From an uncultured Phycisphaera sp. (GTDB taxonomy: Bacteria > Planctomycetota > Phycisphaerae > UBA1845): a stretch of DNA of 64,000 bases. The stretch covers positions 100,008 through 164,007 of the forward strand of contig CAZAMB010000005.1 in assembly GCA_964486335.1 (NCBI GenBank), written 5' to 3'. The notes under the pieces were generated by a model. That model saw only the letters and a list, made by a program, of their open reading frames with translations. It was not told the DNA's origin and did no database searches. Position numbers and translations under genes: made by a program. Shown here one piece after another: positions 42,310 through 55,340 of this stretch (the first letter of the stretch is position 1; every line of letters begins with the position of its first letter).

Positions 42310-42381
42310 GCGGGTGTAGCTCAGTGGTAGAGCGTCACGTTGCCAACGTGAATGTCGAGGGTTCGAGCCCCTTCACCCGCT
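42310..42381 (+). tRNA. tRNA-Gly (anticodon GCC)
   Basis: GCGGGTG-TA-GCTC-AGTGGTA-GAGC-G-TCACG-TTGCCAA-CGTGA-ATGTC-GAGGG-TTCGAGC-CCCTT-CACCCGC-T. The cloverleaf was folded by hand. The T-stem has one G-T pair. Confidence 0.92.
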
Positions 42382-42489
42382 GTTCCTGACGCGCCGTACC
42401 ACGAAGCGACACAGGCGTGCAACCTTTGACTCCAACGCTAGTTACAGCGACCGATTCTCGGCTTTCCTAGATTCTCATTGCCTGGTCGC
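42336..42489 (+). repeat. Island direct repeat, left copy (tRNA-Gly anticodon arm to 3' end plus 108 nt downstream)
   Basis: Gap-free hand alignment with 53567-53720. The tRNA part is 41/46 identical and the downstream part is about 79/108 identical. Confidence 0.85.
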
Positions 42490-42557
42490 TTTTGCCAGAA
42501 AGTGACCGGAATGGACCGCAGTGGACGCCCATTCGTGCAAGGTCTAGTGCGAATTGA
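42396..42557 (+). pseudogene. Decayed copy of the 5' part of the island HTH gene
   Basis: In the frame equivalent to 53627, the translation is VPRSDTGVQPLTPTLVTATDSRLS*ILIAWSLLPESDRNG... The intact copy reads MPASDIAVQLLTPARVTTTDSCLSQVYISWSRFELSKRAG... An in-frame TAG lies at 42468-42470. Confidence 0.45.
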
Positions 42558-42653
42558 ACTCGATGAAAATGCTACGAGGGTTGTGAATTGGCGGGCTTCG
42601 ATTGGTGGTGGGTCGACGCTCGGAGATTCGTCGACCAGTGCGCTCAAAGTAGA

Positions 42654-43166
42654 ATGGAAATGGTCATGGGAATTCGCAACGTCATGGCAGCATTTGAGGC
42701 AATCGATCGTTGCGTCACGAGATGGATGGCTCGTTATGGGCAGCTGCTCCTTCGATTAAGCTTGGCCTTTGTTTTCCTCTGGTTTGGCGCCTTGAAATTC
42801 TTTCCCGAAATGAGCCCCGCCCAGGAACTCGCCACGCGTACCATTGGTTATTTGACCGGCGGTTGGGTCGGCCCAGGTCTGTCCGTTCCTGCACTCGCGG
42901 CGTGGGAGTGCCTGATTGGGCTTGGACTCCTCATCGGAAAGGGACTGCGCGCCGTCCTGTTCCTTCTATACTTGCAGATGATGGGTACGTTGACGCCCGT
43001 GGTCCTCTTTCCCGAAGTAGTGTTTTCCCGCATTCCTTTCGTTCCGACCTTGGAAGGACAGTACATCATTAAGAACCTCGTATTGATCAGTGCAGGCATT
43101 GTGATCGGCGCGACTGTTCGCGGTGGCAAGCTGGTCGCCGAGCCGCACGCCGTTGTGGACGAATGA
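42654..43166 (+). CDS. Integral membrane protein (DoxX/DUF417-like)
   Basis: Four hydrophobic segments are present. LLLRLSLAFVFLWFGALKF is typical of DoxX/YkgB-like proteins. The start is chosen at Met 42654. The family is tentative. Confidence 0.6.
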   Translation: MEMVMGIRNVMAAFEAIDRCVTRWMARYGQLLLRLSLAFVFLWFGALKFFPEMSPAQELATRTIGYLTGGWVGPGLSVPALAAWECLIGLGLLIGKGLRAVLFLLYLQMMGTLTPVVLFPEVVFSRIPFVPTLEGQYIIKNLVLISAGIVIGATVRGGKLVAEPHAVVDE

Positions 43167-44055: not shown

Positions 44056-45465
44056 GTGCCATCGAAAAGTGTTTGGCTGAGGTTTTTCTGTGAAGGCCGT
44101 TGCCTTTCGAGGGCCGCGCTGGCGCGGTCGCTTGCGGACCAAGGCGTATCGGTCGTGGATCCTTTGTCAGAGCGCGAGTCCGGCCCCGGAATTGTCGTAT
44201 TCCAAATTGTTAATTCCGAGCTCTGTGAGCTGATGTCCAAAGTCTCATGTTGTGGTTCGGAACGAGTGCTCGCTTTGGCCGATACTCCATCTGTACTTAA
44301 AAAAGGAGACGTTTGGCGCCTTTTGCACGCCGGCGCGGCGGATGTATTTGATTGGGTGGAATCGGCCAATCCGGCACGGGAGATCGCGATCCGGTTGACA
44401 CGTTGGACCGAGGTCGACGAAATTGTCAAATCATCTCTGGTTCGGGAAAACCTGATTGGACATAGTCGAATTTGGAACGACCTCCTTCGACAAATCGTCG
44501 AAGTAGCGCGATTTTCCGAAGCCTCGATTCTGATAACAGGAGAGAGTGGAACCGGTAAGGAATTGATTGCCCGTTTGATCCATACACTCGATGCCCGGCC
44601 AGACAAAGGTGAACTCGTCGTGCTCGACTGCACAACGATTGTACCGGAACTCGCTGGAAGCGAATTCTTTGGTCACGAGCGTGGGGCCTTTACCGGAGCG
44701 ATTGTCGCACGTGATGGCGCCTTCGCGCTGGCGAACGGCGGCACGCTTTTCCTCGACGAAGTCGGAGACCTACCACGGACGTTGCAGGCGCAGTTGCTTC
44801 GCGTGATACAGGAACACACCTATAAACGTGTAGGAGGCAACCAATGGTGCCAGTCGCATTTTCGATTGTTGTGTGCCACGAACAAGGACTTGACGGTTGA
44901 GGTGAAGGAAGGGCGATTTCGCGCCGACTTGTACTACCGAATTGCAGATTGGACGATTCGATTGCCCCCACTTCGTGACCGTACCGAGGACATTCCCCTG
45001 TTGGCTCGACACTTCATCCAAGCCCATGGCCACCATCGGAGCGATTTCAATTCCGAAGTGACCGAGTATCTGTTGTCTCGGGACTACCCGGGAAACGTTC
45101 GCGATCTGAAACAAGTGGTGGCGCGAATGAGCCATCGACACGTTGGCCAGGGCGAAATCACCGTCGGAGCGATCCCGCCCACGGACCGGCCTCAGGCGGA
45201 GAGTCCGTTGGATAGATGGAGCGACAGAGTGTTCGAACTACCGGTTCGACACTCTCTGGCAGTTGGCGTGGGACTGAAGGAAATCGGCCGAATTGCCGAG
45301 GAGACCGCCGTTCAGATCGCTCTCGCGGAAGAAGGCGGAAATCTGCAGCGAGCCGCTCGACGATTGAAAGTGTCGGATCGCGCCTTGCAGCTCCGACAAG
45401 CCAACGGACGAGGACCCAAGGAAGCGCCCAGCGACCCCGTCATCGAGGGACGGACGCCTGCGTAG
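44056..45465 (+). CDS. Sigma-54-dependent transcriptional activator (bacterial enhancer-binding protein)
   Basis: 469 aa with a GTG start. The AAA+ core has GESGTGKE (Walker A), GGTLFLDEVG (Walker B) and an intact GAFTGA loop (ERGAFTGA). The C-terminal Fis-type HTH is GNLQRAARRLKVSDRALQLR. The N-terminal ~140 aa sensor domain is not assignable by eye. Confidence 0.9.
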   Translation: MPSKSVWLRFFCEGRCLSRAALARSLADQGVSVVDPLSERESGPGIVVFQIVNSELCELMSKVSCCGSERVLALADTPSVLKKGDVWRLLHAGAADVFDWVESANPAREIAIRLTRWTEVDEIVKSSLVRENLIGHSRIWNDLLRQIVEVARFSEASILITGESGTGKELIARLIHTLDARPDKGELVVLDCTTIVPELAGSEFFGHERGAFTGAIVARDGAFALANGGTLFLDEVGDLPRTLQAQLLRVIQEHTYKRVGGNQWCQSHFRLLCATNKDLTVEVKEGRFRADLYYRIADWTIRLPPLRDRTEDIPLLARHFIQAHGHHRSDFNSEVTEYLLSRDYPGNVRDLKQVVARMSHRHVGQGEITVGAIPPTDRPQAESPLDRWSDRVFELPVRHSLAVGVGLKEIGRIAEETAVQIALAEEGGNLQRAARRLKVSDRALQLRQANGRGPKEAPSDPVIEGRTPA

Positions 45466-46282
45466 CCGGCGAAGGTTGGAGCCATGGCTCATTTGGCTCG
45501 ACCATCGGTCTGGAGGGCTTGGCGCCAAAGTGAACGGAACCGACGGGGTTTCGCGAGACTTGGGAAATGAGCCTCAGGATATTCCCGCCGAGAACAAGTC
45601 GCGCGTACTGGGGCGACATGCCAAGCGCTCGAACCTTGGCCAACTCGACGCCAGGATGCAACCAAGGACCGTCGGAACCAAACAGAATTTTTCTTGCGCC
45701 GGCACGATGAAGCGCTTCTTCGAGCAGATCGAACCTTCTTACACCGGACGTATCGGTATGGACATTGGGGTAACGAGTCAGTATGTCCAGGAACGCTCGC
45801 TGGGCGCGCCAGTCGTCTGCGAAGCTGCCCAGATGCGGGATAATGAAATTGACGCCGGCGTATTCCGAAGCGATCAACTCTACCTGCGAGACCTCGCCCA
45901 TCACATCGTAGAGGATGGGCAATGACCAGCGTTTCGCGGCTGCGCAAACCTCTCTTGTGATGGAAGCGTTGTACCGATGGACCTTGATTCCGCGAAATCC
46001 ATGCACGTGCACCGCCTCGTCGATCATCGCCTGCATTCGACCCCGGTCGGCATGTGGGTGGACGAAGGCAAAGCCGATAAAACGACCATTGGATTGAGCG
46101 ACAATTCTCGCCACTTCGCGGTTGGCGGTTCGGTAGTCGGAATGAAACGCAGGGAAGAGTACAGTTCGGCGAATCCCGGCCGCGTCGGCCCGAGCAATGT
46201 ACTTCCCAAGCGGCGCAGCGGTGTCCCAGGGACCCGTCAATCCGTCTCCGCGACCGGCATGGCAATGGCAGTCAATGATCAT
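45440..46282 (-). CDS. Amidohydrolase_2-type (TIM-barrel metal-dependent) hydrolase
   Basis: 280 aa. MIIDCHCH starts the protein, with IPHLG and ILFGSDGPW further on. It is the last gene of the island operon. Its 3' end overlaps the EBP gene 3' end by 26 nt (convergent). Confidence 0.82.
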   Translation of the reverse strand: MIIDCHCHAGRGDGLTGPWDTAAPLGKYIARADAAGIRRTVLFPAFHSDYRTANREVARIVAQSNGRFIGFAFVHPHADRGRMQAMIDEAVHVHGFRGIKVHRYNASITREVCAAAKRWSLPILYDVMGEVSQVELIASEYAGVNFIIPHLGSFADDWRAQRAFLDILTRYPNVHTDTSGVRRFDLLEEALHRAGARKILFGSDGPWLHPGVELAKVRALGMSPQYARLVLGGNILRLISQVSRNPVGSVHFGAKPSRPMVEPNEPWLQPSPATQASVPR

Positions 46283-46442
46283 GGAATCAACCTGAAAATC
46301 GTGATGGACCGCCTGCGGTAGTTGAAGTTCATTGCCGATGCGTCATGGATTCGTCGCCTCTGGGACTTCAGTAACATCTCCGACAAGACCAATTGAATAC
46401 CGGGCCGTCTGTTCACAATTGCCGAAGCGATTTGATTTTAGT

Positions 46443-47447
46443 TTATAGAATCGCACCCGATCGAGATTTGAACCAGGGGGTCAACCGTCTGGCGCCGTCC
46501 AGATTCAGTTCGGTGTGAATGTGATTCGTATGCGGACTAGGGCCAGCATAGTTTCCGTCCTTTCGGCCACTCCGTGAACCATTCCATTTGATACGATTCC
46601 AAATAACGAACTGAATTCCGATGGCCGAAGCATTTTGTACAAGCCAGTTCGCTATCGGATCTCCGACGGCGGAGTTTGCTTGGTGATCTATTTCGCGAAT
46701 CATGATGTCGAGAGCGCGCCCCACCCCGTGAACGGAGGTTTCTGACGGAGTTGCTGAATTAAATCGACATGCATAACCACCGACGGAATCAACGCCTGGA
46801 AACGTCCTTCGTATATAGGTTCCCAGTTCGGCCGCGCCAGGTGTAAACGTGCCGCTGCAATTGCGTCCATTGGCCCACGGTGGAGGACTATCATAGCGAA
46901 CAAACTGTGCTTCGCCGGCAGCGCGAACGTCGGCGGGTAGCACCCATTTCTCGCTCGAAATCGACGGGCTCGGAGAATCCGGCATACTTCCCGTGAGTCG
47001 CTCCCAGGTCCGTCTGCCGACAATGCCGTCAACCGTCAAGCCGTTCGCTCGCTGAAATGTCAGTACCGCCGCTCTCGTAAGGGGACCGAAGGCCCCATCC
47101 TCAGAAAGGCGGCTTTGTCCGGGCGCGGCGTTAGTCGCAATCCAAGCATTAAGTCGTCTTTGCAATTCGATGACAGCCGCTCCGCGCGAACCGGTTCGCA
47201 GCGTTGGCCAAGTTGGTGACTCGTTGAGAATCTCGTCGAACGATAACTCGTCAAGACCAAGTTCATGACCAGGGGACTGCTCAATTTGAAGTACACCGGG
47301 CAAGATCTCATCCAGCTCGGTTGAAAATGGCGATTGATGATCCAGCGGCAGGATGATGTTGCGGCCATGTCGAAACCAGCGGCCGCCTCGTTTTGCACGC
47401 AGGCCACTTGTTTTTCTTACAGAAGATGATGCGCGCAGTCTGTTCAT
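46443..47447 (-). CDS. Peptidoglycan-binding-domain protein with C-terminal LAS-like metallopeptidase-type motifs
   Basis: Start at the ATG at 47447, which makes an ATGA overlap with the upstream stop. The PG_binding_1 repeat is GSRGAAVIELQRRLN...DGAFGPLTRAAVLTFQRANGLTVDGIVGRRTWERL. The C-terminal part has SVHGVGRALDI and HTNHIHTE. The catalytic assignment is inference. Confidence 0.75.
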   Translation of the reverse strand: MNRLRASSSVRKTSGLRAKRGGRWFRHGRNIILPLDHQSPFSTELDEILPGVLQIEQSPGHELGLDELSFDEILNESPTWPTLRTGSRGAAVIELQRRLNAWIATNAAPGQSRLSEDGAFGPLTRAAVLTFQRANGLTVDGIVGRRTWERLTGSMPDSPSPSISSEKWVLPADVRAAGEAQFVRYDSPPPWANGRNCSGTFTPGAAELGTYIRRTFPGVDSVGGYACRFNSATPSETSVHGVGRALDIMIREIDHQANSAVGDPIANWLVQNASAIGIQFVIWNRIKWNGSRSGRKDGNYAGPSPHTNHIHTELNLDGARRLTPWFKSRSGAIL

Positions 47448-48604
47448 GACCTGACTCCTTGGTTTAGGGACAAAGTGGAACCGTAAGATTCCCCGGCGGC
47501 TGAATTCTCGAGTTTCAATTGGCGTGCGCGCGCCAGCGCTTGGCACGCTGAACTGATGTCAATTGGGTTGTGATCGGCGTTGATCAGAAAGGCGATGTTT
47601 GCCCGTGCAGGTCTTTGAACCGAAAGCAGTACCGTTTGGACCCCCATACCCCTAAGCCGACCGGTCATTCTCCTTGCTTCGCCTGACGACCGAAACGACA
47701 ATATCTGCACAGGGAAGAGTCCCGGAGATGGCGTGAATCCTGCCGATCGTGTTCCGGCACGAAATCGTCGTACATTGGAGAGGAGCTGCGATCGTCGTGA
47801 GTTGCCGATGCGCTCGTTGGCCGTCAGCGCGTTCGTGGCAGCCCTGATGGACGCCTGGGAAGGCGGACTGCAATGAACTCGAGTCTCGCTGCGCGTTGCA
47901 AACTGCTCGACAATGTCACCGCGACTCGACAGAGCGGCCACCGGCGCTCCGAATCCCTTGGCCAGGGAACTGATCAAGACCAATTCCTTCGCGCGAACGC
48001 CCCACCACTGGGAGCTTCCGCCTCCGCCTAGCCCATACGGCATTGTTCGCGTCGGTCGCGCGCCAAGAACGCCAAGCGCTTGAGTGTCATCTACGACAAC
48101 AAGACCCTTCACGGCTCGCATCTGACGAAGATAGCTTGTAAGAGGTGCAACCCGTCCGCATCGCATACAGGAACCATCAACGACAACCACCGGACGTGAT
48201 GCAGGCCCGCCAGCATCCTGAAGTGATCGACGCAATGACGAAGGGCAATAGTGCCGAAACGTCTGGACAGACGCGCCGCGCGCCGCCGCCCGTTCCAGTC
48301 CCCAGCGTCCGATGGGATAAAGTCCGCTATCCATGAAAAACCGTGCCCCTTCGTCGGCGAGCATGCCGAGGAAGTCCCAAAACAAGTGTAACGTCGAAGT
48401 TCCAAGCAAAGCCGCTTCACAGCCTTGCAGGTCGGCCAACAATTGGGCGACCCGCTTCGCCTCAGCTGACTCATCAAGTGCCGCAGGTCGGCCGGTCGTC
48501 AACTGCTCCCACGATCCCAGCGCCGAACTCGGGTGCCGCATGCCCAGATACTGGGCCGAGGTAAAGTCAAGCACTGGATGATTTCCGTCAACGACCTCTG
48601 CCAC
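47444..48604 (-). CDS. PLP-dependent class I/II aminotransferase-fold enzyme, alpha-oxoamine-synthase-like
   Basis: 386 aa. LDFTSAQYLGM, VVDDTQALGVLG and SLAKGFGAPVA (putative PLP Lys) parallel the AONS/serine-palmitoyltransferase motifs. Confidence 0.7.
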   Translation of the reverse strand: MAEVVDGNHPVLDFTSAQYLGMRHPSSALGSWEQLTTGRPAALDESAEAKRVAQLLADLQGCEAALLGTSTLHLFWDFLGMLADEGARFFMDSGLYPIGRWGLERAAARGASVQTFRHYCPSSLRRSLQDAGGPASRPVVVVDGSCMRCGRVAPLTSYLRQMRAVKGLVVVDDTQALGVLGARPTRTMPYGLGGGGSSQWWGVRAKELVLISSLAKGFGAPVAALSSRGDIVEQFATRSETRVHCSPPSQASIRAATNALTANERIGNSRRSQLLSNVRRFRAGTRSAGFTPSPGLFPVQILSFRSSGEARRMTGRLRGMGVQTVLLSVQRPARANIAFLINADHNPIDISSACQALARARQLKLENSAAGESYGSTLSLNQGVRS

Positions 48605-50261
48605 CCGTCAATTGCGATTGCAGCCGTTGGCTTAATAGCACTGAAGGCATGGTCGCATTCACCATTCCACTCACCGGCTGAGCTGTCAGATCAACACCCG
48701 TAGCCGCGCGGTAAGCATGGAGGTAACCCTGAATTTCCGGCTTCCAATATCGAGCCCATGTTCGAGCGTGTTCCTGGTCTGTTAGGACATTCCAGTTTCC
48801 ATACCGGATCGAGAGCAGAATCCGTTCTCCGAGGACGCCCAAATCGCGAAAATGGGTGACCGTTACGTCGCTCCAACCCTGAACTCGTTTCATCGCGTCC
48901 ACGCGGCCCATCCACGGTTCCGCATAGGGCACCATGATCCGAGTGCCGAGGAATTCGCGCATTTCGGGTCGGGACAACAACCACTGCTGCATCATCATCT
49001 CGACTCGCGCTGTCCACGGCAGATCCCCGAATTGATTGTGCGCCCCTTGGGCAAGCAGCAAATGGACTTCCTTTAGCGCGTTGAGAAGAGGGAACCCGTC
49101 GGAAATCACGGTCGTGTCCGAGTCTTCCTGAAAAAACACGGAGCTGCGATACAAAAGATCGTGAAATGCTTCGAGAAACTTTGAACGGTTGTCGGCCGGA
49201 CGCATGGTCGAAACGGCCTTGCCCGCGAGCGCCAGTCCGTAGTGGTGGCTATACTCATAGGCTCGGCGAGGAACCGTGAGGCGATGGACTTCGTCCTGGA
49301 TGTACCCCCAAAGAAAGTTGTTGAGTGGCCTCAGCGGATCGATTTCCAACTCGGCCAATGGGTCGCGACCTGCGCCGCGCCGTTTGTTCTGGAATCGAAG
49401 GCTGATGGCGTTCAATGTTTGCGCCAACATCCCTTCTTCGTGCCAATACGACCAGATCAGTTCCAGCAGGCATGGACAAGAAGATTTCGCGCAGAGGATT
49501 TTCCCGTCACAGAAGGCCGAGGTAGCCGTCTGTTCTCGCCAATTCTCACCGAAGGCAGCGGTTAGAATCGTGTTCAAGTAATTGATATCCTTCGTTCGCA
49601 AGTAACTCGCCAGCTTGTCGCTAATGTCCTTCAGGGTGCCGCCCGGCAATGGGAAGTCATCCTCCAGACGTTTGACTTCAGATCCGGGGTCATCCTTTTC
49701 ACCCCATCCTTCGGTCTCGGCGCATGCGCATGGATCGCAATTACTCTTTTCACCTGCTTCTTGTTGTTTCTGAGCAGATGCGCCTTCGCGTGTTGTCGAT
49801 TCCGGATCGTCGGGTTTACGATAACAGGGATCAGGCTTTTTCTTTTCGGGGTCCAGAAACTCATCAGGATGCATTCCCTTTTGAAACGGCCCGCATGTGC
49901 AGCCGCAGCGGATGAGCAAAAACGTCTCCGTGGCCGTCTTCAAAAGGTCGTAGGCGTCCATGCCGTGGATGCAGGGTTCCTTGCTCAAACTTTCTCGCAG
50001 CCTTCGTTCCGGGCAGCAGTCGGGATCTTTGGTGTCTTTGTCGCAGAGCACTCGATCAATAAACTTCGCGTATTCCGAGAACGATGTCCGTTCCGAAGCA
50101 GTCCGAATCCACATCCATAACGGATACGTGTCGTCCCGTTTGAGCGGGGATCTCGAAAGCGAAAAGGTGCCGGACGCCGGCTTGGCAAAATCGCCAGAAA
50201 CACTTACCTTGACTCCCTTCGCCAGCTCTTTACCTTCAACAATAATCTTTCCTTCAGCCAT
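48588..50261 (-). CDS. Hypothetical 557-aa protein, Cys-rich N-terminal half, no recognisable family
   Basis: This long ORF is in operon context. About 15 Cys residues lie in clusters (DCCPE, CGCTCG, CDPCAC, CAKSSCPC), all in the N-terminal half. The C-terminal ~285 aa contain no Cys. Confidence 0.8.
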   Translation of the reverse strand: MAEGKIIVEGKELAKGVKVSVSGDFAKPASGTFSLSRSPLKRDDTYPLWMWIRTASERTSFSEYAKFIDRVLCDKDTKDPDCCPERRLRESLSKEPCIHGMDAYDLLKTATETFLLIRCGCTCGPFQKGMHPDEFLDPEKKKPDPCYRKPDDPESTTREGASAQKQQEAGEKSNCDPCACAETEGWGEKDDPGSEVKRLEDDFPLPGGTLKDISDKLASYLRTKDINYLNTILTAAFGENWREQTATSAFCDGKILCAKSSCPCLLELIWSYWHEEGMLAQTLNAISLRFQNKRRGAGRDPLAELEIDPLRPLNNFLWGYIQDEVHRLTVPRRAYEYSHHYGLALAGKAVSTMRPADNRSKFLEAFHDLLYRSSVFFQEDSDTTVISDGFPLLNALKEVHLLLAQGAHNQFGDLPWTARVEMMMQQWLLSRPEMREFLGTRIMVPYAEPWMGRVDAMKRVQGWSDVTVTHFRDLGVLGERILLSIRYGNWNVLTDQEHARTWARYWKPEIQGYLHAYRAATGVDLTAQPVSGMVNATMPSVLLSQRLQSQLTGGRGR

Positions 50262-50285
50262 GATTTTCTCCTTCGTTCGACGGGA

Positions 50286-51614
50286 CTATGAGGCCCGTGC
50301 GATTGTTTTCTGTGTTCGACCGACGAAAACCCTGCTCCGCGAACAACGGACACAAGCGCCAAACGTGCTTCGAAGCGCCCAATGACTGAGCAATCCACTC
50401 ACGAGGCGACTCTCTTCAACCGGATTGAGGACGCCGTACGCTTTTGCTTGTCCCAATACGGCGAACACAAGCGACTCCGGAGCGGCCCGCAACTGTTCTG
50501 GAAATCGTCGCCAGGTCTGAAAGAGTCTCATTAGGCGATGTGGTTGCCGCTCCTCGACACCGAGGACTTCCCCCAGAGACAATCCCCTGAGAGACTTCGG
50601 TCGATGATGTGTCAACAACGCCACAAAACCAGGAATGCTTGCCTGTAACGCGTTGAATAGCGCGAAACGTCTTGGGTCAAGCTGCGTTGGCGGATAAAAC
50701 GCGTCCCACATCCTCGCGAAATGTTCCCATTGCGGATGTGGATAGAGCGCTTGTCCGACCGCACAACTGAGCTTGACCCTGATCCACGGGCTTGGGTGCG
50801 GATCGTCAAGGTTGATTCGAAAAACGAATCCACGCGGCAGACTGACTACACTCATCAATCCCATGGTGGACGTGATGCCCAACTTCGCCACGGACCAGAA
50901 GTCGGCAACAACCTCGGAAATCCACCGCTCCCAGGCCAGCCACGCAAACGCTTCTGCGCTCCCTTTCTTCCGCATTCCCAGAAGAATTGGCCGGAAGGAC
51001 GGAACCAGTTTCAGCAGTTCCGCTGCCTGATGACCGACCTCGTGGACCAAAGACGATGCGATTCCGCTGCCTACCATTCTCTCCCGCGGCACGCGGATAA
51101 TGGCAACGGGATTGCGCCCGCCCGTGGGCATCCGCGTTCGCGCCCGCCGTATCGCCGCGCCGGGTCCGCGGTCCAGGTAACAAATCACCGGCGGTTCCGA
51201 GTAGTAGCCGCCACCAAGGTGCAATGCATCGGCGGCAAACGCATCCAGTCCGGATAGCCAGATTCCCGTTTCATGTTCGCTGCGTTGAGTGATTGCATCC
51301 GCAAACAGATCAAGATCCGAAAGGACGGCGTTGAACCGCAATCGGAGGAGTACGAATCGCCGCTGCGCTTCCTCGGCGGAGGACAACCGCCCATTCGAAC
51401 CCTCAAGCCACGCCAGAAATGCAACGACTTGTTCCCGCAAATTGCGTCGCCCTTGAAGCAAGTACCCGTCGATGGCTCTTTGCGCGGTTGAGGAAATCGC
51501 CGCGGCGGTTACCGAAGTGATTTGCAGCGCGAATGGCTTCACGATAGCCAGTCGTGTCAGCAGGGCACGGGCTTCCTGCGCAAGAAAACAAGTTGTGTTG
51601 GAACGCATGGACAC
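50286..51614 (-). CDS. Hypothetical 442-aa protein with HExxH motif (putative zinc metallopeptidase)
   Basis: The only motif recognised is SSLVHEVGHQAAELL. The rest is helical-looking sequence without a family I can name. Confidence 0.75.
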   Translation of the reverse strand: MSMRSNTTCFLAQEARALLTRLAIVKPFALQITSVTAAAISSTAQRAIDGYLLQGRRNLREQVVAFLAWLEGSNGRLSSAEEAQRRFVLLRLRFNAVLSDLDLFADAITQRSEHETGIWLSGLDAFAADALHLGGGYYSEPPVICYLDRGPGAAIRRARTRMPTGGRNPVAIIRVPRERMVGSGIASSLVHEVGHQAAELLKLVPSFRPILLGMRKKGSAEAFAWLAWERWISEVVADFWSVAKLGITSTMGLMSVVSLPRGFVFRINLDDPHPSPWIRVKLSCAVGQALYPHPQWEHFARMWDAFYPPTQLDPRRFALFNALQASIPGFVALLTHHRPKSLRGLSLGEVLGVEERQPHRLMRLFQTWRRFPEQLRAAPESLVFAVLGQAKAYGVLNPVEESRLVSGLLSHWALRSTFGACVRCSRSRVFVGRTQKTIARAS

Positions 51615-51620
51615 GACTTG

Positions 51621-52289
51621 TCAAACTCCCAACAGAATGATGCGCCGACCGCGGCGAATCCAGCGACCGCTCTGCCCCGCACTCGAAGTGCTCGCCAGCC
51701 CAGTGTTCATGAGGCCTGGCGCATGACGTTGAGCCGCGGCGGCCAGGGCCGACTTTGCGACGATTCGGGGATCAGTGGTATGTGGGGATGCGGCGGCGTG
51801 CTGAGCAGCGGCGCCGGCCAAGCGAACGAATCGTCGGGCGATTTCAAATTCCTGATCTTCGCCGCTGAGGCCCTCAAATTCCAAGCCAAACAGCTTGCCG
51901 GCCGCGGATCCGGCGGCACTTCCAAGCGCCGTTCCGACACCGGGGATCGGGATGAGTGACCCCAGGGCGCCTCCGGCAATCGGCAGAACCTTCTTGGCGA
52001 TGCCTTTGAGGATTCCGCCAAGCGGACGGAAAACGCGAGGAGCGATGCGCTTAATCCCCTTCCAGGCGCGCTTGAACAATTTGCCGAGGAATTCATCGAT
52101 TTCCTGGTCGCTCGACAATGTGAGCAGTTCGGAGGCGAAATCAACTTCTTCGTCCTGCGTAAATGGTCCCTCGCCGGTCCCGAAATCTCCAAATTCTTCG
52201 AAGACTTCAAAATCGCTCGTTTCACCGCCGAAACCATCGGTTTCCCCGGTGTCTTCGAAATACGTCTGAGTCTGGTCTATGTCGTGCAT
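51621..52289 (-). CDS. Hypothetical 222-aa protein: acidic N-terminus, cationic Gly-rich segment, C-terminal GRWIRRGRRIILLGV tail
   Basis: Residues 1-69 have no Lys or Arg and about 22 Asp/Glu. Residues 70-107 have 11 Lys/Arg and no acidic residues (KLFKRAWKGIKRIAPRVFRPLGGILKGIAKKVLPIAGG). A GxxxG-rich stretch follows. It is a paralogue of 52302..53126. Confidence 0.8.
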   Translation of the reverse strand: MHDIDQTQTYFEDTGETDGFGGETSDFEVFEEFGDFGTGEGPFTQDEEVDFASELLTLSSDQEIDEFLGKLFKRAWKGIKRIAPRVFRPLGGILKGIAKKVLPIAGGALGSLIPIPGVGTALGSAAGSAAGKLFGLEFEGLSGEDQEFEIARRFVRLAGAAAQHAAASPHTTDPRIVAKSALAAAAQRHAPGLMNTGLASTSSAGQSGRWIRRGRRIILLGV

Positions 52290-52301
52290 GTGTTTCTCCT
52301 C

Positions 52302-53126
52302 TTAAATGCCAAGTGCTACGATGGTGTGTCCCGTACGCATCCACCTGCCGTTACCGGGCCGATGAATGGCATAACTGATCCTTGATTCATCCTCGGTTTG
52401 GTCTTCCTCAGGTGCGACAGGAGGCTTGTTGCTTATGCCGAAACCTTGGTCGATCGAATCCTGAATGACGCTTCCACAATGTTGGGCACATGCCGCACAA
52501 TCGCACTCGATTGGCTCCACGGGTTCCGGCGCGACACCGGCGGCCGAACGTGCCCCACCATTGCTCGATGACGACGGAAAAGAAGATGGCATGGACGTTT
52601 GCGCAGGCCGTGTTCCGCTGTCGGTCGGAGGAAATTCCGGCCCATGGGATGGCTTTCCTGTGCGATGCCGCCATCTCCGTTTGCGTCGAAGCTGCTCGCG
52701 AAGAACGCGGAGTGCTGTTCTAATGGCAGGCAAAGCAGCATTTCTCGCGTGTTGTGTACGAGACAGCCGTCTCGCCAACCGACCTGCCAATCGTCCAAAC
52801 CGAACAGCTCGACGTGCTCTCTCAAGGTCCTCTTCATCCGTTTCGAACCCCTCAAGACTGCCATCAATGAACTCCCGAAATTGAGCGTTCAAAGACTCTG
52901 ACGGATCGCCCATGGGCGACGACGCGATGAAGGGTACCCGGCGAATGCCATCAATTGCGCTCTGTACTTGCGGCGTGATGAACTTGGCCAGACTATTCGT
53001 CGTTGAAGTGAGTGACTCCCCGCATTTGCCTAATGTCGCGAGCACAGCTCTGGCAATCTCGTTGCCACTGACCGCTCCTAGCAGGTCAATTGCCAGTTCT
53101 TCTTCGTTTTTTTGGCGATCGTACAT
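52302..53126 (-). CDS. Hypothetical 274-aa paralogue of 51621..52289 (tail NGRWMRTGHTIVALGI)
   Basis: It shares three segments with the downstream gene. Start region: EEELAIDLLGAVSGNE vs EVDFASELLTLSSDQE. Middle: EEDLERARRAVRFGRLAG vs DQEFEIARRFVRLAGAAA. C-terminal tail as in the call. The start is moved to Met 53126 because a sigma-54 promoter lies inside the 5' extension of ORF 52302..53291. Confidence 0.7.
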   Translation of the reverse strand: MYDRQKNEEELAIDLLGAVSGNEIARAVLATLGKCGESLTSTTNSLAKFITPQVQSAIDGIRRVPFIASSPMGDPSESLNAQFREFIDGSLEGFETDEEDLERARRAVRFGRLAGRLARRLSRTQHARNAALPAIRTALRVLREQLRRKRRWRHRTGKPSHGPEFPPTDSGTRPAQTSMPSSFPSSSSNGGARSAAGVAPEPVEPIECDCAACAQHCGSVIQDSIDQGFGISNKPPVAPEEDQTEDESRISYAIHRPGNGRWMRTGHTIVALGI

Positions 53127-53182: not shown

Positions 53183-53198
53183 AGCAAGTTCCATGCCA
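53183..53198 (-). promoter_or_regulatory. Sigma-54 (-24/-12) promoter
   Basis: The minus strand reads TGGCATGGAACTTGCT, against the consensus TGGCAC-N5-TTGCW. The GG and GC dinucleotides are at canonical spacing. The motif lies 56 nt upstream of the ATG at 53126. An EBP with GAFTGA is encoded in the same island. Confidence 0.6.
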
Positions 53199-53227: not shown

Positions 53228-53243
53228 GCGAAGTGTACTTCGC
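53228..53243. promoter_or_regulatory. Dyad GCGAA-N6-TTCGC (candidate enhancer/UAS 1)
   Basis: GCGAAGTGTACTTCGC has 7-bp perfect arms around a 2-nt centre. It lies about 30 nt upstream of the -24 element. Confidence 0.35.
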
Positions 53244-53268: not shown

Positions 53269-53284
53269 GCGAATCGCGCTTCGC
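53269..53284. promoter_or_regulatory. Dyad GCGAA-N6-TTCGC (candidate enhancer/UAS 2)
   Basis: GCGAATCGCGCTTCGC has the same 16-nt architecture. It is 41 bp (about four helical turns) from the first dyad. Confidence 0.35.
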
Positions 53285-53566
53285 CGATCATTCTGTTCGC
53301 TGTTGTCCAGTGAACGAAACAGGCCGAGGTGTTATGGGATTCCGTGGCCTGTGGTCAATGGTATTGGATAAGGCAACGAATCACTCGTTTCGAGGTGAAT
53401 CGGACGTTTAAAGTGACGAATCCTGACTTGATCCTACTCGATTGCTCCAATGCTGGGATGAATACTCATTTAACAGATCGCAAATGGCTCTTGGAAAGAA
53501 ACGTGGAAGGGGTTTCCGCATTCTCCGTAACTCTTTGGTTTTGCGCGGTTTAGAACTCGCTGCGTT

Positions 53567-53612
53567 CATGTTGCCTACGTAAATGTCGAGGGTTCGAGTT
53601 CCTTCACCCGCT
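53567..53612 (+). pseudogene. tRNA-Gly 3' fragment (anticodon arm to 3' end), non-functional
   Basis: 41/46 identical to 42336-42381. The anticodon-stem and loop changes are not compensatory. The region 5' of it cannot form acceptor or D arms. Confidence 0.75.
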
Positions 53613-53720
53613 TTGTTTGACGCGCCGTGCCAGCGAGTGACATCGCGGTCCAACTCTTGACCCCAGCGCGAGTTACGACGACCGATTCTTGCCTTTCCCA
53701 GGTTTACATTTCATGGTCGC
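53567..53720 (+). repeat. Island direct repeat, right copy
   Basis: See 42336-42489. The offset is 11231 nt with no gaps over 154 nt. Confidence 0.85.
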
Positions 53721-53863
53721 GTTTCGAGCTGTCTAAGCGGGCGGGCGTCCCGTACAGCGGAATCCACCGCTTTATCAGCTACGACCGCGACCTGACCCTG
53801 ACAACGGCGTCACGGCTGGCCGACGTGCTGGGGCTGGAATTGCGCCCTGCAAAAGGAAAGTAG
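53627..53863 (+). CDS. Small helix-turn-helix protein (Xre/excisionase-like position)
   Basis: 78 aa from the GTG at 53627. FELSKRAGVPYSGIHRFISYDRDLTLTTASRLADVLGLEL is a typical HTH. It ends 8 nt before the integrase start. Confidence 0.55.
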   Translation: MPASDIAVQLLTPARVTTTDSCLSQVYISWSRFELSKRAGVPYSGIHRFISYDRDLTLTTASRLADVLGLELRPAKGK

Positions 53864-53870
53864 GTGCATC

Positions 53871-55340
53871 ATGCCGAGAGTATTCCGGCAAAAATACACG
53901 CAACCGACGGCAGACGGAAAACGAAAAACGCGACAAAGCGCTAAGTGGTACGTCGAGTACCGCGACGCCCAAGGCATTCGGCGTCGGGTTCCGGGGTACA
54001 CCGACAAGGGCGCGACCCAACAGCTCGCGGCGGAGTTGGAACGAAACGCGGAGCGACAGCTCGCGGGTCTGGTCGATGCCTTTGCCGATCATCGAAAGCG
54101 CCCTTTGCGGGAACACCTGAATGATTGGCACGGCGCCTTGATCGCACGCGGCGCGTCGCGCGATTATGCCGACTTGGTCAAGAGCCGAGCGACCAAGGCG
54201 CTGACAGGTTGCGGATTCGTTTTCCTTGCCGACGTATCGGCATCCGACCTGCAAGCCTATCTGAGCAGGTTGCGAAGCGACGGACTGAGCATTCAAACGG
54301 TCAATTTCTACCTGCAAGCGGTCAAGCAGTTTTTCCGCTGGATGGTTGCTGACCGACGAATGCCCGACAACCCGGTCGCGTACCTGCGCGGGGGGAATGT
54401 CCGAACGGATCGTCGCCACGATCGACGCGCACTCGACACTGATGAACTGCGATCGCTACTCGACGCTACGAAGAATGGACCGGAACGGTTTGGCATGAAG
54501 CCTGATGCGCGGGCAATGCTTTATCAGCTTGCGGTTGAAACTGGTCTGCGGGCCACCGAACTGCGAACGCTGACTTGGGATTGTCTGGACTTGGAAGGCG
54601 ACCTGCCGACGGTGACGGTCAAGGCCGGTTATAGCAAACACCGGCGAACCGATACCCTTCCTTTAAAGCCGTCTACGACGCAAACGCTGGCCCGCTGGAG
54701 CAACGAACTCGGCAACGTGGACCCAACGGCACGCCTTTTCAACATGCCGCCCAAGGCCGCGAAAATGCTCCGAGCTGATCTGGCCGACGCTGGCTTACCG
54801 TATGCCGATGCTGATGGGCGCGTGGCCGATTTTCATTCCTTGCGGCACACTTACATTTCCAATCTGGCCCGTGGCGGTGTTCATCCAAAGATCGCCCAAC
54901 AGCTTGCCCGGCATTCGACCATTACGCTGACGATGGATCGCTATTCGCACACGGTTTTGGGCGAGCTATCAGACGCACTGTCGGCCCTGCCGGAGCTGGA
55001 CGCCACGCCATTCGAGCAAGAATCGGTGAGAGCGACCGGCACCTGCGGCAACCCCCAAAAATGCTTACCGATTTCCTTACCGAAATCCTTACCGAAACGC
55101 GGTGCGCGGCGAGAGTTGTCCCATTCATCGGCGTGCAATGATCCAACGCAAACCGCGAAATTCGACCGGCAAGAAAATCCTATGAATATAGGTATTTCCT
55201 GCGCTTCCACGCGTGACGACGCGGGTGTGTTCGTGGAACAATCCCGACTGCGCCCGGCGGGATTCGAACCTGCGACCCCCGGTTTAGGAAACCGGTGCTC
55301 TATCCAACTGAGCTACGAGCGCAACAATCGGCTAGTATAA
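53871..55340 (+). CDS. Tyrosine recombinase / phage-type integrase
   Basis: 489 aa. It has an N-terminal SAM-like domain. The catalytic region has LAVETGLRATEL (Arg), HSLRHTYISNL (HxxR) and HSTITLTMDRYSH (His/Tyr). The last ~30 codons read antisense through tRNA-Arg. Confidence 0.9.
   Translation: MPRVFRQKYTQPTADGKRKTRQSAKWYVEYRDAQGIRRRVPGYTDKGATQQLAAELERNAERQLAGLVDAFADHRKRPLREHLNDWHGALIARGASRDYADLVKSRATKALTGCGFVFLADVSASDLQAYLSRLRSDGLSIQTVNFYLQAVKQFFRWMVADRRMPDNPVAYLRGGNVRTDRRHDRRALDTDELRSLLDATKNGPERFGMKPDARAMLYQLAVETGLRATELRTLTWDCLDLEGDLPTVTVKAGYSKHRRTDTLPLKPSTTQTLARWSNELGNVDPTARLFNMPPKAAKMLRADLADAGLPYADADGRVADFHSLRHTYISNLARGGVHPKIAQQLARHSTITLTMDRYSHTVLGELSDALSALPELDATPFEQESVRATGTCGNPQKCLPISLPKSLPKRGARRELSHSSACNDPTQTAKFDRQENPMNIGISCASTRDDAGVFVEQSRLRPAGFEPATPGLGNRCSIQLSYERNNRLV
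55249..55322 (-). tRNA. tRNA-Arg (anticodon CCT)
   Basis: The minus strand reads GCGCTCG-TA-GCTC-AGTTGGATA-GAGC-A-CCGGT-TTCCTAA-ACCGG-GGGTC-GCAGG-TTCGAAT-CCCGC-CGGGCGC-A. There is one A-C mismatch in the T-stem and one G-T pair in the acceptor stem. Confidence 0.85.

Follow-up and report, generated by a model that had tools for sequence, protein, structure and literature searches.

Two proteins of unassigned family in an uncultured Phycisphaera sp. belong to the core of a mobile, sigma-54-gated operon

Minimal gluzincins (clan MA; families M48 with HtpX/Ste24, M56 with BlaR1 and M78 with ImmA/IrrE) are recognised by an HExxH motif that is followed by ExxA[DN] on a later helix. A 442-amino acid (aa) protein with this layout is encoded in a 64,000-nucleotide (nt) stretch of DNA from an uncultured Phycisphaera sp. 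(Planctomycetota; assembly GCA_964486335.1, contig CAZAMB010000005.1, positions 100,008 to 164,007), to which we refer as the window. Together with a 557-aa protein and two small glycine-zipper proteins it heads the operon described here, which we call the cassette. As in the minimal gluzincins, the HExxH helix of the 442-aa protein comes after beta-strands and an invariant Glu is found downstream. Unlike them, the protein has no profile or structural match to any of these families and carries additional helical domains of unassigned type at the N-terminus (approximately 130 aa) and the C-terminus (approximately 150 aa). It also differs from M48 and M56 in having no transmembrane helices.

Other described systems resemble further parts of the cassette. 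Phage holin-endolysin cassettes and lysis-based (type 10) release likewise combine signal-less PG_binding_1 hydrolases with small, putatively membrane-active proteins, and expression is likewise tightly gated. In contrast to these systems, there is no holin with transmembrane helices beside the endolysin-like protein of the cassette (Kyte-Doolittle values over 19 residues, KD19, stay below 1.6 in every cassette protein) and no phage context, whereas three extra obligate or near-obligate conserved proteins, metabolic enzymes and control by sigma-54 with an enhancer-binding protein are present. The logic that we propose would be analogous to that of bacterial gasdermin-protease systems, where an adjacent protease strips an inhibitory segment from a membrane-permeabilising protein. 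Here, however, there is no gasdermin fold or homology, the putative protease would belong to the metalloproteases and not to the caspase, trypsin or subtilisin type, and its activating role is inferred. Glycine-zipper bacteriocins and toxins (Caulobacter CdzC/D and the type VI secretion system (T6SS) effector Tse4) share with the small proteins a glycine zipper after a cationic amphipathic helix, but are not homologous; the small proteins are longer and multi-segmented, have both an acidic pro-region and a tail that is conserved at the C-terminus, and lack a type I or type VI secretion partner. Finally, PspF-psp and RtcR-rtcBA have the same regulatory arrangement, in which a -24/-12 promoter and a pair of palindromes upstream of it adjoin the gene of an AAA+ sigma-54 activator, although the genes regulated in the cassette are unrelated to psp or rtc. 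Apart from this generic sigma-54 control, no defining feature of the known systems that we tested was found in the cassette.

The four core genes of the window are all on the minus strand:

48588-50261, minus strand: 557-aa protein (start ATG), an all-helical conserved module interrupted by a lineage-specific Cys- and charge-rich insert
50286-51614, minus strand: 442-aa HExxH protein (start GTG), a predicted gluzincin-like metallopeptidase
51621-52289, minus strand: small paralogue 1 (222 aa), with an acidic N-terminus and the C-terminal tail SGRWIRRGRRIILLGV
52302-53126, minus strand: small paralogue 2 (274 aa from ATG 53126), divergent; CxC-rich insert present, C-terminal tail GNGRWMRTGHTIVALGI

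Both larger open reading frames (ORFs) are real genes and not chance ORFs, since thousands of database proteins match them over nearly their full length: 5768 for the 442-aa protein and 4886 for the 557-aa protein (E<=0.001), the top matches being 50-68% identical. Members of both families always carried the name 'hypothetical protein' in the sources where names were found. To determine how widely the cassette occurs, the gene of the 557-type family was sought in one genome per species (185,579 species genomes) and found in 550 of these (approximately 0.3%), spread over many phyla. The best 80 loci come from Acidobacteriota, Planctomycetota, Chloroflexota, Nitrospirota, Verrucomicrobiota, Alpha-, Beta-, Gamma- and Deltaproteobacteria, a Clostridia metagenome-assembled genome (MAG) and Actinomadura. 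All 51 related loci with complete flanks contain the small, HExxH and 557-type genes, with one to three small genes each. Accessory genes are less regular: the sigma-54 activator is present in 45 of the 51, an Amidohydro_2 hydrolase in 43, a pyridoxal phosphate (PLP) enzyme in 40, a hydrolase with a peptidoglycan (PG)-binding domain in 38 and an M20 peptidase in 14. Gene order is always the same, running from the small genes through HExxH, 557-type, PLP enzyme, PG-binding hydrolase, M20 (if present) and Amidohydro_2 to the activator on the opposite strand, and the same order surrounds the homologues in Bradyrhizobium, a Planctomycetia MAG and a Competibacteraceae MAG. In the window the operon occupies 45440 to 53126, read on the minus strand, and the activator gene lies at 44056-45465. 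It is well supported that the two proteins, along with the small glycine-zipper proteins, make up the obligate core of an operon that is self-contained, moves horizontally and stays silent until fired by a sigma-54 enhancer-binding protein of its own.

The regulatory elements of the window are the following:

53183-53198, minus strand: sigma-54 (-24/-12) promoter TGGCATGGAACTTGCT, near-consensus, 57 nt upstream of ATG 53126
53229-53242 and 53270-53283, minus strand: upstream palindrome pair CGAAGTGTACTTCG and CGAATCGCGCTTCG, of the CGAAG-N4-CTTCG type, 41 nt apart
44056-45465, plus strand: sigma-54 enhancer-binding protein, consisting of an N-terminal domain of approximately 125 aa without assignment, an AAA+ domain and an HTH_8 domain

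The window thereby combines what characterises a sigma-54-dependent operon, namely a promoter with GG at -24 and GC at -12, an adjacent enhancer-binding protein and upstream sites of the activator type. We take position 53126 as the likely start of small paralogue 2, in agreement with the initial annotation, because a longer ORF of 329 aa would contain the promoter. In 65 of 80 related loci the first small gene likewise has such a site upstream (GG, GC and at least 9 of the 11 consensus positions matched). The palindrome, generalised as CGAA[AG]-N4-[CT]TTCG, occurs at least once in 55 of 60 upstream regions and at least twice in 38; its copies are almost always 41-42 nt apart. In the remainder of these loci its frequency is 0.005 per 250 nt. 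Judging from sequence, the palindrome pair is probably bound by the activator of the cassette itself. The activator gene lies nearly always on the opposite strand at the end of the operon, and the best profile matches of its product are of the RtcR/PspF type; neither a CARF nor a receiver domain was detected in its N-terminal domain. Taken together, the conserved promoter, palindromes and activator indicate that, across phyla, the cassette is accompanied by an activator, binding sites and a promoter of its own. In Actinomadura sp. KC216 (L055) the core trio and an M74 endopeptidase occur without a detectable sigma-54 activator.

Several observations concern the mobility of the cassette, which in the window is bracketed by two repeats:

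42335-42493, plus strand: left direct repeat copy (159 nt), made up of the 3' half of tRNA-Gly(GCC) and downstream sequence
53566-53724, plus strand: right direct repeat copy, 78% identical to the left, with a degenerate partial tRNA-Gly

The two copies enclose the entire cassette and the guanine + cytosine content falls to 0.54 at both ends, so that the segment between them looks like an 11-kb integrated island. Comparing 121 flanking proteins from 61 loci, we found no family that is common to the loci. As the flanks are unrelated, the cassette itself is the unit of inheritance. One protein cluster at 90% identity even holds both Chloroflexi and Brocadiia sequences. A search of a plasmid collection returned four matches only, on megaplasmids or chromids. 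The same flanking proteins included scattered defence genes only; given that no family is shared among them, we claim no defence enrichment.

The initial annotation of the window had noted a single HEVGH in an otherwise unassignable 442-aa protein and proposed a zincin-like peptidase. The first statement is confirmed: HEVGH at residues 191-195 is the only HExxH of the protein (0.014 expected by composition). Residues H191, E192, H195, E234, D238 and H273 are invariant in all 224 HExxH homologues compared, including the most divergent representatives, and are candidates for metal-binding and catalytic roles; E234, situated in SEIVADFW 39 residues downstream of HExxH, is a candidate third ligand. 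Invariant positions are approximately threefold denser in residues 141-280 (47%) than elsewhere (about 15%). An Arg-rich loop flanking HExxH (residues 156-179) contains seven invariant arginines, R156, R157, R159, R161, R174, R177 and R179. The predicted model is confident (predicted local distance difference test, pLDDT, 83; predicted template modelling score 0.85) and shows strands at 143-148 and 171-176, the HExxH helix at 183-200 and then a long helix at 222-245 that includes SEIVADFW. No solved fold was matched by this model and structure comparison did not recognise the zincin fold; sequence searches of the PDB, both with a profile and with the core only, gave nothing significant. A metzincin identity can be ruled out, as HEVGHQAAEL lacks the Gly at +3 and the His at +6 after the second His. 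Since the motif layout fits whereas no family matches, we state that the protein probably works like a gluzincin rather than that it is a member of a given family. The zincin-type peptidase of the initial annotation is therefore borne out by the motif, though not by the fold. That it could process the neighbouring small paralogues, as also suggested there, is plausible: the small and HExxH genes lie side by side in all 51 complete loci, and ORFs that fuse the two occur.

Neither the 442-aa nor the 557-aa protein matches a family in Pfam, NCBIfam, PADLOC or PHROGs, and no result was obtained when 34 homologues of the former (Pfam and NCBIfam) and 47 of the latter were searched. The absence of a recognisable family was thus rightly noted at the outset, and no assignment to a housekeeping family emerged for either protein. 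A profile search for the HExxH family in a representative library yielded 1125 matches, of which the top 150 comprise only members of the family or fragments of them; where these are longer, they are fused to the small or the 557-type gene next door and bring no new domains. A hydrophobicity scan also agrees with the earlier impression that both proteins lack a signal peptide: in these two, as in every other cassette protein, no signal peptide or transmembrane segment was detected (no 19-residue window reaches a Kyte-Doolittle value of 1.6).

The 557-aa protein contains 15 cysteines (residues 73, 82, 83, 97, 119, 121, 123, 146, 175, 178, 180, 251, 257, 262 and 264), all before residue 265 and hence, as described initially, confined to the N-terminal half. 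The final 293 residues hold no Cys, but 10 Trp, 10 His and 11 Tyr. Conservation was scored over an alignment of 201 sequences and proved to be very uneven: C251 is conserved in 91%, C73 in 90%, C119 in 83%, C264 in 65%, C262 in 42% and C82 in 23%, and the nine others in at most 1%. Homologues have a median of 5 Cys and a minimum of 1. The charged linker (residues 125-207; 83 residues with 21 D+E, 12 K+R and 11 Pro) and the NCDPCAC cluster fall in a region, residues ~124-207, that consists of gaps in more than 90% of the sequences and is thus a lineage-specific insert. CxC-rich inserts that are absent from homologues are found both in this protein and in small paralogue 2 (ECDCAACAQHCG). The part that is conserved, at residues ~35-120 and ~210-557, forms a helical module; its motifs include ELIWSYWHEEGML and GAHNQFGDLPWTAR, and in the family this module contains dozens of invariant His, Glu, Asp, Arg, Trp and Tyr. 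Many homologues have extra, variable Ig-like or CarboxypepD_reg domains at the N-terminus. Profile and single-domain sequence searches of the PDB gave nothing significant, and the AlphaFold2 model based on 47 sequences is unusable (pLDDT 52.6). A match of the family to the PT-TG pre-toxin domain was rejected, as it covers 24 residues near the C-terminus and reaches at best E=0.0021 and 18.4 bits, against a cutoff of 23.5; moreover, the C-terminal domain of the 557-type family is constant, unlike the variable toxin domain of PT-TG polymorphic toxins.

The small proteins (approximately 220 aa) are conserved along their whole length. Small paralogue 1 has 22 D/E against a single K/R in residues 1-70, whereas the remainder is net basic. 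From the acidic N-terminus onwards it consists of an ELL..EIDEFLG helix, a cationic amphipathic helix, the glycine zipper, the LEFEGLSGEDQEFE helix and the tail; the corresponding family motifs are an ELLEVxxExELDQFLG helix and, after the glycine zipper, a LELEGLSxEDQEFE helix. The hydrophobic moment of the amphipathic helix is 0.91, a value reached by none of 500 shuffled sequences, and the match to a glycine-zipper profile is weak. The tail, SGRWxRRGxxIxLxGV, is found in 107 of 125 small proteins. In some small proteins two modules are fused in tandem, and fused ORFs also join small with HExxH and HExxH with 557-type genes.

Downstream of the core lie three enzyme genes:

47444-48604, minus strand: divergent PLP enzyme (386 aa) resembling alpha-oxoamine synthases (BioF/Kbl), accessory
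46443-47546, minus strand: signal-less PG_binding_1 protein whose C-terminal peptidase region is LAS/M15-like (H-x6-D / HxH)
45440-46282, minus strand: Amidohydro_2 metal-dependent hydrolase, very strongly conserved, HxH motif kept

The PLP enzyme matches a fold-type I profile and has conserved both the PLP lysine (in SLAKGFG) and a DDTQ motif, in which Gln replaces the usual His of DxxH; the substitution itself is conserved. Its BioF/Kbl matches (E=1e-14 to 1e-18) are far under the equivalog cutoffs. At 48588-48604 the ORF of the 557-aa protein adjoins or overlaps that of the PLP enzyme. The PG_binding_1 peptidase likely starts at ATG 47447, overlapping the PLP stop codon (47444-47447). This overlap is of the ATGA type, which suggests translational coupling of the two genes. 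Near the N-terminus of the peptidase the tail motif of the small proteins recurs as GRWxRxGxxIxL (GGRWFRHGRNIIL, 47349-47411, residues 46-66 of the ORF 46443-47546; hmmsearch domain E=1.3e-4). It is also present in the hydrolases of loci L041, L022 and L035, making 4 of approximately 84 hydrolases in all, and may be a docking or recognition element common to small proteins and some hydrolases. The hydrolase slot is polymorphic: PG_binding_1 is combined with M15-like, VanY, M74, M23, Amidase_2 or phospholipase D (PLD) domains. No candidate immunity gene is adjacent to the hydrolase of the window, the distance to the next gene being 160 nt.

Tentatively, we read the cassette as a module for breaching the envelope or for lysis, tightly gated, whose protease activates small pro-proteins, a reading that we consider possible rather than probable. 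Once the activator fires the promoter upstream of the first small gene, the small proteins would be made as auto-inhibited pro-forms, the acidic N-terminal part masking the cationic amphipathic helix and the glycine zipper. As a zinc gluzincin with ligands H191, H195 and E234 and E192 as the base, the 442-aa protein would bind the acidic segments through its Arg-rich loop and cleave the small proteins. The freed membrane-active segments might breach the cytoplasmic membrane, after which the signal-less hydrolases (PG-binding with M15, VanY, M74 or M23, amidase, or phospholipase D) could reach their substrate and open the envelope. The 557-aa protein, which is helical and very strongly conserved, is taken as an enzyme or cargo that acts with the protease and is possibly freed by the breach; the part of the PLP and amidohydrolase enzymes would be to provide a small-molecule co-factor or product, or to modify it. 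Biologically, the outcome might be altruistic lysis or abortive infection, or else the release of an antagonistic factor.

A number of points weigh against this proposal. Cleavage, metal binding and lysis are all predicted from sequence, and the small proteins have no true transmembrane segment (maximum KD19 1.54). The role of the 557-aa protein is a guess, its model being of such low confidence. Together with the PLP enzyme and the amidohydrolase, this protein is more than a pure lysis module needs, and the 13 of 51 complete loci from which the PG hydrolase is absent are, like the two enzymes, poorly explained by an envelope breach. In addition, the cassette was not found in 50,697 phage records, and the core proteins have no match in PADLOC-DB 2.0, where the AAA+ domain of the activator alone matches RtcR models.

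Several other explanations were considered. The presence of one to three paralogous 'precursor' genes directly upstream of enzymes, of which several retain catalytic residues (the PLP Lys, HxH), might point to a pathway like those of ribosomally synthesised and post-translationally modified peptides (RiPPs). The product would be the 16 C-terminal residues of the small paralogues, where the conserved tail lies in 107 of the 125, or another segment; the HExxH protein would be a leader peptidase or metal-dependent modifier, and the 557-aa, PLP, Amidohydro_2 and M20 proteins would tailor the peptide. We regard this as unlikely: at about 220 aa and with conservation throughout, the small proteins are unlike leader/core precursors, 11 of the 51 complete loci dispense with the PLP enzyme and the polymorphic cell-wall hydrolases are left unexplained. 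The cassette also contains no transporter and no YcaO, radical S-adenosylmethionine, Lan-type or RiPP recognition element family, and neither a short leader/core precursor nor a known maturase, as expected of known RiPPs, was found in it. A delivery or secretion device appears distinctly unlikely as well. Here the trio would form or gate an export route for hydrolases and phospholipases acting as anti-competitor effectors, with the GRWxRxGxxIxL tail as a docking signal. The variable slot (amidase, endopeptidases, PLD) indeed resembles the effector repertoires of T6SS and type IV secretion systems, the tail recurs at the hydrolase N-terminus in the window and three other loci, and the N-terminal Ig-like domains of the 557-type family are variable. 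Yet the variable hydrolases come without an immunity gene. Nor does the cassette encode a membrane-spanning component, an ATPase or a channel for the outer membrane, and the tail motif is limited to the few hydrolases mentioned above.

An envelope-stress or peptidoglycan-recycling operon, with a Psp-like sigma-54 response, enzymes that process cell-wall peptides and the three families as accessories, would agree with the similarity of the activator to PspF/RtcR-type proteins and with the several hydrolases that could act on muropeptides. It is nonetheless improbable in view of the patchy distribution (approximately 0.3% of species), the island location with flanks that are unrelated between loci, the near-identical proteins across phyla and the PG hydrolases without export signals; furthermore, the obligate genes are the three of unassigned function and not the metabolic enzymes. 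The remaining alternative concerns the 557-aa protein alone, for which the initial annotation had suggested metal or iron-sulphur (Fe-S) binding, or a disulfide-rich extracytoplasmic fold, on the basis of its Cys clusters. That all 15 Cys lie in the N-terminal half, that C73, C119, C251 and C264 could form one structural site and that small paralogue 2 of the same genome also has a CxC-rich insert speak in its favour. As a property of the family, though, the idea is unsupported: the majority of the Cys are not conserved, NCDPCAC lies in the lineage-specific insert and homologues manage with as few as one. There is no signal peptide, and Fe-S or zinc-finger profiles (Pfam, NCBIfam) match neither the protein nor its homologues. 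We therefore consider it very improbable.

Returning to the envelope-breach proposal, we compared the cassette with existing descriptions. The families and the cassette are not described in Pfam 2025, NCBIfam 2026, PADLOC 2023, PHROGs or solved structures, nor was a description found in the full-text literature, subscription-only papers being outside that search. The glycine-zipper and sigma-54 mentions in the CoCoNuT paper turned out to be unrelated to the cassette. Whether we are dealing with an undescribed kind of mobile envelope-attack or suicide module, equipped with its own activator, promoter and sites and comprising three new families and at least one new fold, is in our judgement nearly an even question, inclining slightly to the negative. 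In any case, three unnamed families, whose members number in the thousands and are 50-68% identical across more than 10 phyla, are always encoded together; with them go a sigma-54 activator, a promoter and binding sites of their own, as a portable regulatory unit that is tightly off by default. The carriers include nitrifiers, methanotrophs, anammox relatives, rhizobia and Acidobacteria; Nitrosospira briensis, Cupriavidus respiraculi and Bradyrhizobium sp. Ai1a-2 are among those in culture. If a protease indeed triggers an envelope breach, the cassette would represent a new class of programmed lysis or antagonism as well as a new metallopeptidase family. Even if the proposed mechanism is wrong, a constitutive activator is expected to switch the cassette on.

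Some minor observations were made around the cassettes. Single defence-type genes, encoding TIR-domain proteins and DruA, occur near some of them (L055 9399-12152, L005 1-620, L003 18393-18764), and L005 also has a patatin gene nearby. Just outside the right repeat of the window, an ORF at 53871-55340 (plus strand) shows, as judged by eye, the tyrosine-recombinase-like motifs HSLRHTY...RYSH; its 3' end reads through tRNA-Arg(CCT) at 55249-55322 (minus strand). This tRNA-Arg was rejected as an attachment site, there being no tRNA-Arg direct repeat within the window. Between tRNA-Gly and the activator, finally, lies an ORF of 192 aa (42588-43166, plus strand) with a maximum KD19 of 2.01 and 15 windows of at least 1.6, which is the only membrane-type protein within the repeat-bracketed segment.

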